A DNA stretch of 64,000 bases from an uncultured Candidatus Saccharibacteria bacterium. Its GTDB lineage: Bacteria > Patescibacteriota > Doudnabacteria > UBA920. Where the stretch lies: NCBI GenBank assembly GCA_964483665.1, contig CAZACP010000001.1:141896-205895 (forward strand), in the 5' to 3' direction. The notes beneath the pieces were generated by a model that was not told where the DNA came from, ran no database searches, and saw only the letters and a list, made by a program, of their open reading frames with translations. Shown here piece after piece: positions 3,605-11,496 of this stretch. The translations under genes were made by a program, and so were the position numbers. Position 1 is the first letter of the stretch. Every line of letters begins with the position of its first letter.

Positions 3605-4057
3605 TTATTGGGTAAAAGTTTCTTGGCCAACAATAGAGCCTTTTGCGCGAGCTCGCTTTCTGGCAACTTTTAATCTGGAAGTGCTTCGTTCCAGAGCCGC
3701 GGCAACTTTTGCGTATTCGCCCGCGGTAACTTTCGTTTCCCGCAAAGCTTTTTCAGCCCTGTGTTTTGCTTCCTCGGCTCGCTTTTCGTCTATTTCAAAC
3801 GAGTGTTCGGCGGCATCGGCTAAAACTACAACACTGCCGGCTCTGTTCACCTGAACAAAACCGCCGGAAACATTTAAGTATAGCTCTTCGTCACCTGTTT
3901 TGGCCTTAAGTTCTCCCGGTACCAAAGTTGCTACAAGGGGTTCGTGGTTAGGTAAAATTGTTATTAGCCCCATTGTGGTAGGGCAAGTTAAACTGACCAA
4001 TTCTTTTTTTAGAACGGTTTTTTCCGGGGTTACTAGTTGAAAGTGTATAGAGTTCAT
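3605..4057 (-). CDS. atpC: F1 ATP synthase epsilon subunit
   Basis: Last gene of the atp operon. N-terminal beta-sandwich plus C-terminal helical region typical of epsilon. Confidence 0.85.
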   Translation of the reverse strand: MNSIHFQLVTPEKTVLKKELVSLTCPTTMGLITILPNHEPLVATLVPGELKAKTGDEELYLNVSGGFVQVNRAGSVVVLADAAEHSFEIDEKRAEEAKHRAEKALRETKVTAGEYAKVAAALERSTSRLKVARKRARAKGSIVGQETFTQ

Positions 4058-4060
4058 AGT

Positions 4061-4366
4061 TTATATAAAAGCGCCGTGCTCGAAGTTATTCCGATTATGC
4101 GCATCCTGATTGTCTGTACCCAATTTTGCCCAAATTCTACCTAAATCTGTTTCGTGATGAATGTTAAGCTTTTTAAATATACTAGCCGAATGAGCGTCAA
4201 CAGTTTTTTCAGAAATTCCTAGAATCTGAGCTGTTTCTAACCTTGTTTTTCCAGATGCCCGGAATTTTAGAACTTGTTTTTCTGCCGGCGTTAAACTTTT
4301 AAAACCCCCAGTCTCTTCTTTAGAAATAAAATTATGCGGATGTATTTCGAAATTAATTTTTTTCAT
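4061..4366 (-). CDS. LuxR/GerE-family HTH transcriptional regulator (101 aa) embedded between atpD and atpC
   Basis: LTPAEKQVLKF...ETAQILGISEKTVDAHSASIFKKL is a canonical GerE-type HTH. Confidence 0.8.
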   Translation of the reverse strand: MKKINFEIHPHNFISKEETGGFKSLTPAEKQVLKFRASGKTRLETAQILGISEKTVDAHSASIFKKLNIHHETDLGRIWAKLGTDNQDAHNRNNFEHGAFI

Positions 4367-4372
4367 GAAAGT

Positions 4373-5737
4373 TTATTTCACTTGTTCTATTCCACCTTTC
4401 ATATAAAAGGCGCTTTCAGGTTTTTCGTCGTGCTTGCCTTCTAAAATTTCCTTAAAAGCCTTAATGGTATCTTTCAAAGAAACAAAAGCTCCGGGTGTGC
4501 CGGTAAACACTTCGGCAACGTGGAATGGCTGGGAAAGGAAGCGCTGGATTCTGCGAGCCCTGCCTACTATAACTTTGTCTTCTTCCGGCAATTCTTCCAT
4601 GCCTAAAATAGCAATTATATCTTGCAAGTCTTTGTAGCGCTGCAAAACTTTTTGCACGCCTCTGGCAACTTCGTAGTGTTCTTTGCCGACAATGTTCGGG
4701 TCTAAAATGGTAGAAGAAGAGTCAAGCGGGTCAACTGCGGGGTAAATACCAAGTTCTGTTAATGCGCGTGAAAGTACAACGGTTGAGTCTAAGTGGGCAA
4801 AAGTTGTAGCCGGTGCAGGGTCAGTTAAGTCGTCCGCCGGTACGTAAACTGCTTGCACAGAAGTTATAGAACCTTCTTTAGTAGATGTAATACGTTCCTG
4901 AAGTTCGCCCATTTCTGTAGCCAGCGTTGGCTGATAACCTACGGCCGAAGGAATACGGCCCAAAAGGGCTGATACTTCAGAGCCAGCTTGAGTGAAGCGG
5001 AAAATATTGTCTATGAACATTAAAACGTCTTGTTTTTCCTCGTCTCTAAAATATTCAGCCATAGAAAGTCCGGTTAAAGCAACTCTGGCTCTGGCTCCGG
5101 GCGGTTCGTTCATTTGGCCGAACACCATAGCTAGCTTGTCTAAAACTTTCGCGTCTTTCATTTCGTGGTAAAGGTCGTTTCCTTCGCGGGTTCTTTCGCC
5201 TACTCCGGCAAAAACACTTACGCCGCCGTGTGCCTTGGCAATGTTGTTAATAAGTTCCTGAATAACCACAGTTTTGCCCACGCCTGCGCCACCAAAAAGA
5301 CCTACTTTACCGCCTTTTAAAATAGGACAAATTAAGTCTATAACTTTAATACCGGTTTCTAAAATCTCAGTTTTAGTATTCTGTTCGGTAAATTTAGGGG
5401 CATGTCTGTGAATTGGGTATTTTTTGTCCGATTTAGCCTCTGCCTGACCGTCTACAGTATTGCCCAAAACGTTAAAAATACGCCCTAGAGTAGCTTTTCC
5501 TACAGGAACAGATATTGCAGCGCCGGTGTCCGAGACTTCCATTCCGCGCTTCAGCCCGTCGGTGCTAGACATGGCAATAGCTCTAACTACATTTCCTGGT
5601 AGTTGTTGCTGGACTTCAAGGGTTAGTATATTTTTATCTAAAGTTATCTCAAGAGCGTTAAAAATTTCAGGCACTTTGCCCTCGAATTTTACGTCAACAA
5701 CTGGTCCTATAACTTGTGTAATGTTTCCTTTGTTCAT
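4373..5737 (-). CDS. atpD: F1 ATP synthase beta subunit
   Basis: Walker [10 protein letters not shown]; highly conserved beta-subunit sequence throughout. Confidence 0.97.
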
Positions 5738-5752
5738 AAAAATGAATATTAG

Positions 5753-6172
5753 TTACTTTTTAACGCTAGGCATTTCTCCAGGACTTGGGTCAATGCGATT
5801 TATTATTGATTTAATAAATATTTTCCTGTCTTTAGGCGGGAGTTCTATTATACGGTTAATGAGGTTATTAAAAGCAGTTGTTCCTGGATCCATAACTATG
5901 CCAGTTCTATCGCCAAGCTCTTGGCACATTCCAGACAGTTCAGATCTAAATTCCATCCAATTTTGAGCCTCATTTCTTATGCTCTCATATTGAGATTTTA
6001 TTTGTCCTTCATATTTGTCTATATATAATACAATTTTAGCAAGCTCGTTTAAAAAAAATTGTCTGCCTTTTTCGTGTATATACTGCAGAACTTCGTCTAA
6101 AATTCCTAGCATTATTGTCTCAATATTTGGCTCTCCTTCTCCGTGTTGTCTCATAATTTTATTCAAGGGCAA
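5753..6172 (-). CDS. hypothetical protein (139 aa) inserted between atpG and atpD
   Basis: ORF tightly packed and co-oriented inside the atp operon; overlaps the atpG 3' end by 14 nt. No family recognised. Confidence 0.5.
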   Translation of the reverse strand: MPLNKIMRQHGEGEPNIETIMLGILDEVLQYIHEKGRQFFLNELAKIVLYIDKYEGQIKSQYESIRNEAQNWMEFRSELSGMCQELGDRTGIVMDPGTTAFNNLINRIIELPPKDRKIFIKSIINRIDPSPGEMPSVKK

Positions 6173-9952: not shown

Positions 9953-9983
9953 TAAACATCCTGTACTATTTACTAGTATTAGT

Positions 9984-10014
9984 AGATATCTGCGGAAAAA
10001 ATCCGCAGATATCT
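9984..10014 (-). promoter_or_regulatory. perfect 13-bp-stem hairpin (agatatctgcgga-aaaaa-tccgcagatatct) in the atpE-atpF intergenic region
   Basis: Seen directly, 6 nt downstream of the atpE stop. Nested inside a second inverted repeat (atatctactaata at 9937-9949 / tattagtagatat at 9977-9989). Confidence 0.5.
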
Positions 10015-10020
10015 ATAATT

Positions 10021-10239
10021 TTACAGGGTAAACGAAACAACAAGCGCGTAAATCGCAATGGCTTCCGCAAAAGCCAAAGAAAGAAGCATTGGAACGAACA
10101 ATTTGTCGGCTGCTTCCGGGTTTCGGCCTATGCTTTCCATAGCCTTGCTGGCTGTTTTGCCAATTGCGTATGCCGGTAGCGCTCCGCCAATGGCTATTGC
10201 GCCTGCTTTTGCTAAAGTTGTGACTGCTTCGGCTTCCAT
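10021..10239 (-). CDS. atpE: F0 ATP synthase subunit c
   Basis: Two-helix hairpin proteolipid with the conserved carboxylate helix ([13 protein letters not shown]). Good AAGGA SD. Confidence 0.9.
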
Positions 10240-10324
10240 ATATTTTTCCTTTTGACGTTTTTGTGGACTATTTAGTTTAGAGTTTAGAGTCCCAAAGTTT
10301 TCGTCTTAATTATTAATAAATAAA

Positions 10325-11152
10325 TTAATGACCTTCTGCGTGGTGGATTTCGGTAGTAGCTATATTTAAATATACCAAAGTCAGCATAGAAAATACGGTT
10401 GCCTGAACGAGTCCGACTATAATTTCCAAGCCCATAAATGGCAACGGCAGAAAAATAGCAAGCATAGAGGCCAGTACGGTAAGCAAAACTTCGCCGGCAA
10501 AAATATTGCCGTAAAGCCTAAGGGACAAAGAAACCATTTTTGCTACCTCTGAAAACACTTCAATTAAACCAACAAAAAATTCAATTATCGCAACAAGTAT
10601 TTTTACCGGGTTAAATGAAATAATCGCTTTATATAAGTCTCCTAATTTTATAAATTTATTCGCGTATTTAAAAAACCCTATAGCTGCAATACCCAAAAAA
10701 TGTGAGCCCATAACTGCCACAACTGCCATTGAAAGAGTCATATTTAAGTCGGTGTTTGCCGGCCTAAACAGGGGTATTAATTCTACGCTGCCATGGTGCC
10801 AACCCCAAATTCCAATAGAACCTGTTCCCGGCATAAGTCCCATCCAATTAGAAACTACAATAAACAAAAAGAAAGTTCCGACTATAGGAAGAAATTTATA
10901 GCTTTTTTTTCTGTCCCCAGTTACTTGGTCAAAATATCCGAGCATAAATTCCAAAAGTCCTTCGGTAAAATTCAAAATCCCTTTCGGCGCTTTTAAACCC
11001 GAATAATATTTTTTTACGCCTTTTTGAACTAAAATAGCAAAGACTAAAAAGCCTAATAAAGCTAGGCTTGAGTTAATGTATGAGTTAGTAACTGGGAAGT
11101 TACCAATTTGGAACATTGTTTCCGCAGCTAGCGGAGGTAAGACTAAATTCAT
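10325..11152 (-). CDS. atpB: F0 ATP synthase subunit a
   Basis: Polytopic membrane protein with the conserved R-containing helix (LSLRLYGNIFAGE). Confidence 0.9.
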   Translation of the reverse strand: MNLVLPPLAAETMFQIGNFPVTNSYINSSLALLGFLVFAILVQKGVKKYYSGLKAPKGILNFTEGLLEFMLGYFDQVTGDRKKSYKFLPIVGTFFLFIVVSNWMGLMPGTGSIGIWGWHHGSVELIPLFRPANTDLNMTLSMAVVAVMGSHFLGIAAIGFFKYANKFIKLGDLYKAIISFNPVKILVAIIEFFVGLIEVFSEVAKMVSLSLRLYGNIFAGEVLLTVLASMLAIFLPLPFMGLEIIVGLVQATVFSMLTLVYLNIATTEIHHAEGH

Positions 11153-11496
11153 TTTTTATTGAGGTGTTCTTTTAAACGCTTAATTTGTTTATAGATTCCC
11201 ATTACGCTTATAGATATGGCAAGTGCAAGCCCGATTAGAATATAATGTTTGGTCCCGTATTTGGTATCAAGCCATTTGCCAATGTAGGAAAGTACTATTA
11301 GAGGAAGGGCAATAATAAGTCCAAAATCTGTGGCTATGCTAAACATAGACATAGCATTTATTACCTTTTTGCTTTTTGGGACCATTCTGGCAGCATCTTT
11401 GGCCTCTTTTAGCTCTTTTTGCTCTTTACGTACCTGCTCAAGGCTTATTCTGCCCGGAACCAAATATTCTTTTTCGTCAAATTTTTCATCAGCCAT
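11149..11496 (-). CDS. AtpZ/AtpI-like small membrane protein preceding atpB
   Basis: Two TM helices. The position immediately upstream of and overlapping atpB is typical of atpI/atpZ. Confidence 0.55.
   Translation of the reverse strand: MADEKFDEKEYLVPGRISLEQVRKEQKELKEAKDAARMVPKSKKVINAMSMFSIATDFGLIIALPLIVLSYIGKWLDTKYGTKHYILIGLALAISISVMGIYKQIKRLKEHLNKK

Follow-up and report, generated by a model that had tools for sequence, protein, structure and literature searches.

Organization of the atp operon

The 64,000-nt stretch of contig CAZACP010000001.1 analysed here (the window, to which the positions of its own genes refer) derives from an uncultured bacterium of the Doudnabacteria. Its minus strand carries an F1Fo ATP synthase operon in which three small open reading frames (ORFs), designated INS1, INS2 and INS3, are inserted between the F1 genes (Table 1). 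Comparison with related genomes suggests that they are probably exchangeable passengers of these junctions rather than parts of the enzyme. Few bacterial gene clusters are as conserved as the atp operon, which often serves as a stable marker.

The genes for subunits a, c, b, delta, alpha, gamma, beta and epsilon are all present, co-oriented and in the canonical order I-B-E-F-H-A-G-D-C, as the initial annotation had read them; the Pfam matches, which for a, c, b, delta, gamma and epsilon all exceed the gathering score, agree with the ORF list. The existence and minus-strand orientation of the three inserted ORFs, and the coordinates given for INS1 and INS3, also stand. The start of INS2 had been placed at a TTG at 6172 (139 aa), which is an alternative to the more likely ATG at 6154, preferred because the database copy and both known homologues begin there. 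The spacings, previously put at 4–14 nt, range from 3 to 15 nt (atpA-INS1 4 nt, INS1-atpG 9 nt, atpG-INS2 4 nt from the ATG, INS2-atpD 15 nt, atpD-INS3 6 nt, INS3-atpC 3 nt), and the start codon of each inserted ORF lies 4–6 nt past the stop codon of the preceding atp gene. A promoter-like site is found upstream of the atpI-like gene and a terminator-like hairpin directly downstream of atpC, and no convincing promoter or terminator signal was found at the slot borders between 11521 and 3596. Judged from these signals, it is plausible that the atp genes and INS1–3 form one transcription unit, as their tight packing had already implied.

The arrangement is reproduced in contigs of five independent samples with 0–1 differences each, and is thus not an assembly artefact. 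At a stop-codon probability of 0.067 per codon, each open frame of the length of the inserted ORFs would arise by chance with a probability of about 1e-3 to 1e-4; together with the filled gaps in relatives described below, this low probability excludes chance ORFs. The GC content at codon positions 1, 2 and 3 of the inserted ORFs is patterned as in the atp genes, with a lower GC at position 3 (GC3).

A separate observation concerns the delta subunit, which is short (about 122–130 aa) in all Doudnabacteria loci, whatever their slot occupancy, and matches only profile positions 65–171 of OSCP. Across the clade, the protein seems to lack most of the N-terminal domain with which delta normally binds the alpha subunits.

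Table 1. Genes and signals of the atp operon in the window, in the direction of transcription
Feature	Position	Strand	Remarks
Palindrome (T)GTCAAG-N-CTTGAC(A)	11546..11567	.	Overlaps the -35 hexamer of the atp promoter
Promoter-like site	11521..11550	-	TTGACA, 18 nt, TATATT; 11/12 matches; upstream of the atpI-like gene
atpI-like (AtpZ-type), 115 aa	11149..11496	-	Pfam ATPase_gene1, 3.6e-8, 33.8 bits (cut-off 26.6)
atpB (subunit a), 275 aa	10325..11152	-	Pfam ATP-synt_A, 8.6e-40
atpE (subunit c), 72 aa	10021..10239	-	Pfam ATP-synt_C, 2.6e-17
atpF (subunit b), 205 aa	9335..9952	-	Pfam ATP-synt_B, 4e-23
atpH (delta), 128 aa	8952..9338	-	Pfam OSCP, 4.1e-17, profile positions 65-171 only
atpA (alpha), 499 aa	7375..8874	-	ATP-synt_ab_N/ab/ab_C on the same gene in the near-identical contig L096
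INS1, 104 aa	7056..7370	-	Between atpA and atpG; tiny family
atpG (gamma), 295 aa	6159..7046	-	Pfam ATP-synt, 1e-82
INS2, 133 aa from ATG	5753..6154	-	Between atpG and atpD
atpD (beta), 454 aa	4373..5737	-	ATP-synt_ab_N/ab/VA_C on the same gene in the identical contig L097
INS3, 101 aa	4061..4366	-	Between atpD and atpC; stand-alone GerE/LuxR helix-turn-helix
atpC (epsilon), 150 aa	3605..4057	-	Pfam ATP-synt_DE_N, 1.3e-20; ATP-synt_DE, 2.5e-10
Terminator-like hairpin and T run	3577..3596	-	Directly 3' of atpC

F1 junctions in related genomes

A scan with the gamma subunit, retaining one genome per species, gave about 37 loci labelled as Candidatus Doudnabacteria, Saccharibacteria or Patescibacteria (relatives' loci and contigs are denoted by L numbers). 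Their AtpG proteins range from 93% down to about 49% identity to that of the window, and more distant bacteria ranked after them, which assigns the window to a Doudnabacteria-type member of the candidate phyla radiation (CPR). Junction lengths were tabulated over 38 Doudnabacteria atp operons, a gap of at least 190 nt being counted as gene-sized. Such gaps separate atpA from atpG in 18 of 35 operons and atpG from atpD in 16 of 37, and are found less often at atpH-atpA (7/32), atpD-atpC (6/35) and atpF-atpH (2/32); none occurs at atpI-atpB (0/29) or atpC-CCA (0/30). Co-oriented ORFs of at least 60 aa are present in 44 of the 49 gene-sized gaps of the F1 half (atpF-atpH to atpD-atpC), compared with only one of 17 long atpB-atpE or atpE-atpF spacers, and the junctions of the flanking syntenic genes remain compact in the relatives. 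The arrangement in the window is indeed unusual, as was noted initially, and relatives also hold ORFs at the same junctions.

A neighbour-joining tree of AtpA, AtpG and AtpD contains one subclade, comprising the window operon, L001–L007, L009, L015, L020, L025, L026 and L037, in which the atpA-atpG and atpG-atpD slots are mostly filled. Compact, insert-free operons (L006, L008) are nested within it, and the sister subclade is mostly compact. The best-supported reading of these sequences is that the F1-half junctions of the atp operon in this subclade act as hot spots of insertion and replacement, the positions of the slots being conserved and their contents variable or absent.

The nearest relatives are L001 (CAZAED01) and L002 (CAZDIP01), with AtpG proteins 93% and 88% identical to that of the window and AtpD proteins 94–95% identical. 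Along every atp gene the DNA of the window is 72–83% identical to theirs, and with L001 the alignment also spans the ordinary atpB-atpE and atpE-atpF spacers. The alignments to both break from 7372 to 7046, from about 6146 to 5741 and from 4373 to 4057, and these breaks coincide exactly with the limits of the three slots. Between atpA and atpG and between atpG and atpD, L001 and L002 contain ORFs sized like those of the window, for which tblastn, blastp, hidden Markov model (HMM) searches and hhalign revealed no relationship to INS1 or INS2. The ORFs in their atpD-atpC slots encode helix-turn-helix (HTH) proteins with 31–33% identity to INS3 over 45–48 columns. The suggestion of the initial annotation, lineage-specific accessory or regulatory subunits or an F1 assembly factor, is not supported in the sense of conserved components, in view of these unrelated ORFs and of the compact operons within the subclade. 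Non-conservation in sister genomes, which it had named as a refuting outcome of the proposed synteny comparison, holds for the nearest sisters, although small slot-restricted families do exist in other genomes.

Contents of the slots

Clustering of the slot ORFs by blastp, HMM and hhalign produced numerous singleton families, and most slot ORFs are orphans. By Pfam, PDDEXK_3 domains could be identified in two slots of L009 (7483-7995 and 10605-11136), 23S_rRNA_IVP in L020 (7569-7991), L025 (7561-7990) and L083 (1143-1576), GIY-YIG in a slot of L025, and GerE HTH domains in the atpD-atpC slots of L001, L002, L015 and L037. Between atpG and atpD, L025 also carries a 392-aa DDE transposase on the opposite strand (9344-10522; DDE_Tnp_1, 2.8e-33, and DUF4372), adjoining a co-oriented 120-aa ORF; a transcript shared by atpG, atpD and atpC is hardly conceivable in that genome. 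A weakly P-loop-like protein of about 150 aa occupies the atpA-atpG slot of L004 (4529-4990) and L005 (7544-7999); it has a Walker-A-like GEPNAGKSEL motif and weak Pfam matches to MMR_HSR1, Zeta_toxin and KTI12. Further slot ORFs in relatives, judged by eye, are hydrophobic and apparently encode membrane proteins.

The PDDEXK_3 and 23S_rRNA_IVP slot genes are enclosed by terminal inverted repeats of 23–48 nt that are 79–96% complementary. Hairpins with similar arms and no ORF are found in L025 (12148-12228) and L026 (10873-10977), at the same junction as the hairpin-bracketed ORFs of other genomes. By their sequences, these hairpin-bracketed ORFs have the stem-plus-ORF architecture of rRNA intervening sequences, here within an mRNA operon. 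At the borders of the window slots neither terminal inverted repeats nor attachment sites were found, and inverted pairs spanning the ORFs are at most 15 nt long and AT-rich.

Some smaller similarities were also seen among the slots. In L015 (about 7605-7670) and L037 (about 7583-7650) the atpA-atpG slot starts with some 60 conserved nt (...GTCATCCCGGAATTTTTTGCGCAGATG...), which are followed by unrelated ORFs. The distant loci L007 (5828-6091) and L026 (5816-5998) share an atpH-atpA slot family with 55% identity over 49 aa, characterized by the motif PGMPVR...G..G.V......KV.VAYRIP. The atpG-atpD slot ORFs appear to have a common acidic, Pro/Glu-rich N-terminus, seen by eye only; a single family for all of these ORFs was considered, and iterative HMMs and hhalign gave no link.

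Incongruent similarities and selection

The similarity among slot ORFs is, at the sequence level, incongruent with that of the flanking atp genes. The best match of INS3 is the copy in L015 (44% over 86 columns, AtpG 62%), and it is only 33% identical to the L001 HTH protein over 48 columns despite an AtpG identity of 93%. INS2 is 61–66% identical to its L083 copy (AtpG 65%), L083 being an outgroup of the clade formed by the window, L001 and L002, and the INS2 family is absent from L001 and L002. A second relative of INS2 is found in a distant subclade, in L086, the gamma subunit of which is nearest to that of L009. Slot families span genomes whose AtpG proteins are only 51–59% identical.

The finest scale is offered by the near-identical pair L081 and L082, which differ at 14 of 2969 positions outside the slot ORF (99.5% identity) and at 40 of 297 positions inside this ORF of the INS1 family, a 29-fold higher density. 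The differences (L082 2186-2482 versus L081 1012-1329) cluster at both ends of the ORF, and a 1-nt deletion in L081 shifts the N-terminal frame. The synonymous divergence (dS) is 0.245 in the slot ORF and 0.0096 in atpG; its confinement to the ORF points to imported or long-maintained alleles, not merely to relaxed constraint. The incongruences of INS2 and the HTH genes together with this pair imply that exchange is required at least sometimes.

Had the inserted ORFs lacked a coding signature, as the initial annotation allowed for, a ratio of nonsynonymous to synonymous divergence (dN/dS) of about 1 was expected. Between the window and L083 it is 0.39 for INS2 (dS 0.70) and 0.15 for atpG (dS 2.06, values of dS near or above 1 being imprecise). 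Ratios within the INS1 family are 0.47–0.71, those of atpG and atpC in various pairs 0.03–0.27. The P-loop slot ORF of L004 and L005, with a ratio of 0.08, is under strong purifying selection, unlike most slot ORFs. By these ratios the slot ORFs are coding, most of them weakly constrained, with some purifying selection.

INS1 and INS2

Neither INS1 nor INS2 belongs to a Pfam or NCBIfam family, and both are presumably soluble cytoplasmic proteins. INS1 is acidic, as first described, if only mildly so (pI 5.2). Word-indexed searches of 5.8 billion proteins with either sequence returned near-identical copies only. A profile of the INS1 family, composed of INS1 and the atpA-atpG ORFs of L026 and L021, recovered eight proteins in all from these 5.8 billion, and all five known contexts of the family lie between atpA and atpG. 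The predicted structure of INS1 is a small SH3/KOW/Tudor-like beta-barrel, a generic fold in a low-confidence prediction. For INS2, an exhaustive HMMER search of 1.84 billion representative proteins found two true homologues (64% and 35% identity), both encoded directly after atpG, and one dubious long protein. Its model is a five-helix bundle (pLDDT 82, pTM 0.75), for which no informative structural or sequence neighbour was found.

No match of INS1 or INS2 to known accessory, assembly or inhibitor families of ATP synthase (AtpI/AtpZ, zeta/DUF1476, Atp11/Atp12, epsilon-like, IF1) was obtained in Pfam, NCBIfam or PDB. The phage and defence profiles of PHROGs and PADLOC gave nothing for either protein, nor did a scan of the IMG/VR viral contigs with alignments of both; a BFVD fold search yielded nothing significant, the best match being an Avd-like protein (E 0.23). 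INS2 was considered as a divergent helical bundle of the bAvd/IVP type and rejected, since hhalign against IVP gave a probability below 1%. A weak RsgI_N match raised the idea that INS1 is an obligate anti-sigma partner of a sigma-r4-like INS3; this was discarded because the families do not co-occur, L026 and L081 having the INS1 family without an HTH gene and L001, L002, L015 and L037 an HTH gene without the INS1 family.

INS3 and the atp promoter

The assignment of INS3 to the LuxR/GerE-type HTH proteins is well supported, with a match of residues 23-75 to Pfam GerE (PF00196; E 2.5e-15, 56.3 bits, cut-off 23.5). Its NCBIfam matches, which include PedR, are confined to the C-terminal effector part of response-regulator models, and no receiver, autoinducer-binding or other N-terminal sensing domain was found in its 101 residues. 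This makes it a stand-alone GerE-like protein rather than a quorum-sensing LuxR or a response regulator, and by its domain it is most likely a DNA-binding transcription regulator. In PHROGs and PADLOC it has generic HTH matches only, and there is a faint match to NUMOD1 (E 0.1). Its homologues in L001, L002, L015 and L037 occupy the same slot, such that the five small HTH genes of these operons all lie between atpD and atpC. A metagenome scan with an alignment of the window and L015 HTH proteins retrieved only ordinary FixJ/NarL response regulators, none of them beside atp genes, and consequently adds nothing on slot fidelity.

An inverted repeat, TGTCAAG-N(10-19)-CTTGACA, lies over the -35 hexamer of the atp promoter and is kept in at least 12 divergent Doudnabacteria loci; relatives with the palindrome upstream of atpI are L002, L004–L009, L015, L025, L026 and L037. 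It occurs as a single copy in the window and is a candidate operator of some regulator. Autoregulation by INS3 through this site was considered. The palindrome is, however, equally conserved with or without an HTH gene in the operon, its spacing tracking phylogeny, and for this reason gives no specific support to such autoregulation.

Origin and role of the inserted genes

On the comparisons above, we hold it to be probable, with some reserve, that INS1–3 are real, promoterless passenger genes which are exchanged by recombination at the F1 junctions and are not constituents of the enzyme. We propose that they are read from the atp promoter, their translation probably being coupled to that of the preceding atp gene, and that they could persist through this constitutive transcription and coupled translation without harm to the downstream F1 genes. 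Homologous recombination within the flanking atp genes, which are highly conserved, would carry the cassettes from one lineage to another. By this route each family would automatically stay in its own slot, which would explain together the sharp borders, the incongruent similarities, the L081/L082 mosaic and the slot fidelity.

Several observations weigh against this proposal. The slot borders of the window show no recombination machinery, repeat or attachment site. Slot fidelity, with INS1 after atpA, INS2 after atpG and the HTH gene after atpD, would be expected just as much if each protein were in partnership with the F1 subunit encoded next to it. Moreover, the ORFs of the window, L001 and L002 are similar in size in all three slots and may be orthologues that diverged fast instead of having been replaced; dS between the window and these two relatives is about 1.0–1.4, at which a weakly constrained orthologue could become unrecognisable.

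Such a partnership is the foremost alternative: alpha would be the partner of INS1 and gamma that of INS2, these two proteins serving as assembly helper, inhibitor or regulator, and INS3 would regulate the operon, all evolving fast. We regard it as unlikely on the whole. It would account for the restriction of the INS1 family to atpA-atpG in five of five contexts, for the position of both INS2 homologues and all five HTH genes, for the tight spacing of start and stop codons, for some purifying selection on slot families and for the conserved palindrome on the atp promoter. However, the corresponding slots of the nearest relatives encode unrelated proteins, those of several genomes of the clade are empty, and nuclease-type selfish genes, hairpins without an ORF and an insertion sequence element are found in slots as well. 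The dN/dS values of 0.4–0.7 are far above the 0.03–0.27 of the atp genes, no similarity to known accessory proteins of ATP synthase emerged in Pfam, NCBIfam or PDB, the palindrome is kept in lineages without an operon HTH gene, and the SH3-like fold of INS1 is generic and modelled with low confidence. Given the slot-restricted families and the signs of purifying selection, some ATP-synthase-linked function of slot families is nevertheless possible.

The inserted ORFs could also be functionless spacers, junction DNA being tolerated only if it is translated, so that Rho-type polarity is avoided and ribosomes stay coupled, with proteins that merely drift. This would fit the filling of 44 of 49 F1-half gaps against one of 17 long spacers of the Fo half, the starts at 3–15 nt from neighbouring stops, the majority of orphans, the high ratios within the INS1 family (0.6–0.7) and a GC3 below that of the atp genes. 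We find it distinctly unlikely, as INS2 has a confident compact fold (pLDDT 82) and a dN/dS of 0.39, the P-loop ORF of L004 and L005 has a dN/dS of 0.08, INS3 contains a canonical GerE domain that exceeds the Pfam threshold in several lineages, and families persist across genomes with AtpG 51–59% identical. The raised dS in the L081/L082 ORF indicates allele exchange beyond relaxed constraint.

A bolder reading, which appears improbable to us, is that the F1 junctions form a locus of balanced polymorphism. Fast-evolving proteins would act on the adjacent F1 subunit as inhibitors, protectors or decoys in a conflict targeting the ATP synthase of these episymbiotic bacteria, with alleles selected to be diverse and shuffled by recombination. 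If true, a core bioenergetic enzyme would have modulators of a new class, hypervariable and position-coded.

Lastly, it is very improbable that INS1–3 are degenerate survivors, stripped of their nuclease, of selfish elements that home into conserved atp sequence, in analogy to the free-standing homing endonuclease genes of T4-like phages or the insertion sequences of CPR rRNA genes: the PDDEXK_3, 23S_rRNA_IVP and GIY-YIG genes in the same slots of relatives (the first two with 23–48-nt inverted repeats), the ORF-less hairpins in the same junctions of other loci, the 23S_rRNA_IVP and GIY-YIG genes at fixed sites in CPR rRNA genes (PMC11270868), the group I intron with a PD-(D/E)XK ORF in the tRNA-Leu gene of the window and the faint NUMOD1 match of INS3 agree with this origin, but INS1–3 have neither nuclease domains (Pfam, NCBIfam) nor terminal inverted repeats, phage and defence profiles offer no relatives except generic HTH proteins for INS3, the IMG/VR scans with INS1 and INS2 were negative, there is no profile similarity to the IVP family, and homing activity of PDDEXK_3 and IVP is itself unproven.

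Comparison with known systems

One of the closest parallels to the passenger-gene interpretation is offered by the insertion sequences of CPR rRNA genes, where 23S_rRNA_IVP and GIY-YIG genes occupy fixed insertion sites and ORF-containing and ORF-less versions are scattered over the tree (PMC11270868). Common to both are fixed sites in a very conserved, highly expressed locus, a patchy distribution, and the presence of 23S_rRNA_IVP and GIY-YIG genes, which fill atp slots of relatives, those of the IVP type in stem-plus-ORF form. In contrast, the atp sites are junctions between protein genes of an mRNA operon and do not lie inside an RNA gene, INS1–3 lack a nuclease or IVP domain and a bracketing stem, and nothing suggests excision from the transcript.

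Integron cassettes are likewise promoterless, co-oriented small ORFs of unrelated function behind one upstream promoter that vary among close relatives. The slots of the window differ in having no attC-like inverted repeats and in holding single genes between essential genes instead of an array, and their exchange would proceed through flanking homology. An integrase was not noticed among the ORFs annotated around the operon, the whole window not having been screened for one. The free-standing homing endonuclease genes of T4-like phages (seg, mob) are also small optional ORFs between conserved essential genes, which one close relative may have and another lack and for which co-conversion of the flanks is expected, whereas INS1–3 are without a nuclease domain and reside in a bacterial chromosome.

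Known additional genes of F-type ATP synthases include atpI/atpZ and the atpQ/atpR genes of N-ATPases, besides regulators encoded outside the operon such as the zeta subunit, IF1 and AtpTheta. Within a clade these genes are conserved, and their place is either 5'-terminal in the operon or at another genomic locus. INS1–3 resemble them as small non-catalytic proteins with a genetic or functional tie to ATP synthase, and the window operon also opens with an ATPase_gene1-type gene, but INS1–3 lie between F1 genes, are not conserved in sister genomes and match none of these families (Pfam, NCBIfam, PDB). INS3 by itself is comparable to GerE of Bacillus subtilis (74 aa), a stand-alone LuxR-type HTH protein, in having a single GerE-type domain with short tails and presumably in binding DNA as a dimer. 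It differs in being embedded between atpD and atpC and in its extremely rapid divergence, with 31–33% identity among close relatives whose AtpD proteins are 94–95% identical.

A clade-wide pattern of variable cassettes at fixed positions is unexpected in this operon, and no description of inserts in the atp operons of CPR bacteria or Doudnabacteria was found in the literature. The junctions of F1 genes in one CPR lineage would behave as recombination-driven cassette sites, in line with the insertions that CPR genomes are known to tolerate even in their best-conserved genes (rRNA genes, tRNA introns). This bears on how streamlined genomes gain and express small promoterless genes and on the origins of orphan proteins. 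Three tiny families with fixed genomic addresses and a near-identical strain pair with a divergent slot allele offer a testable system for asking whether the passengers are neutral, selfish or modulators of ATP synthase. For annotation, the case is a warning that synteny alone is insufficient to name such ORFs ATP synthase subunits.

Neighbourhood of the operon

On the minus strand beyond the 3' end of the operon, the gene for tRNA-Leu(CAA) (1584-2433) is split in its anticodon loop by a group I intron of 774 nt (Rfam Intron_gpI, 64.6 bits; core 1651-1978). The intron contains an ORF of 117 aa (1929-2282) with a Pfam PDDEXK_5 match (5.9e-32), a PD-(D/E)XK protein that is probably an intron-encoded homing endonuclease. 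On the other side, the interval between the atp promoter and tRNA-Thr (14473-14548) codes for an 896-aa P-type cation ATPase (11612-14302). This ATPase is not at that position in L002–L005, where the tRNA region adjoins the atp operon, and L007 has a homologue upstream.

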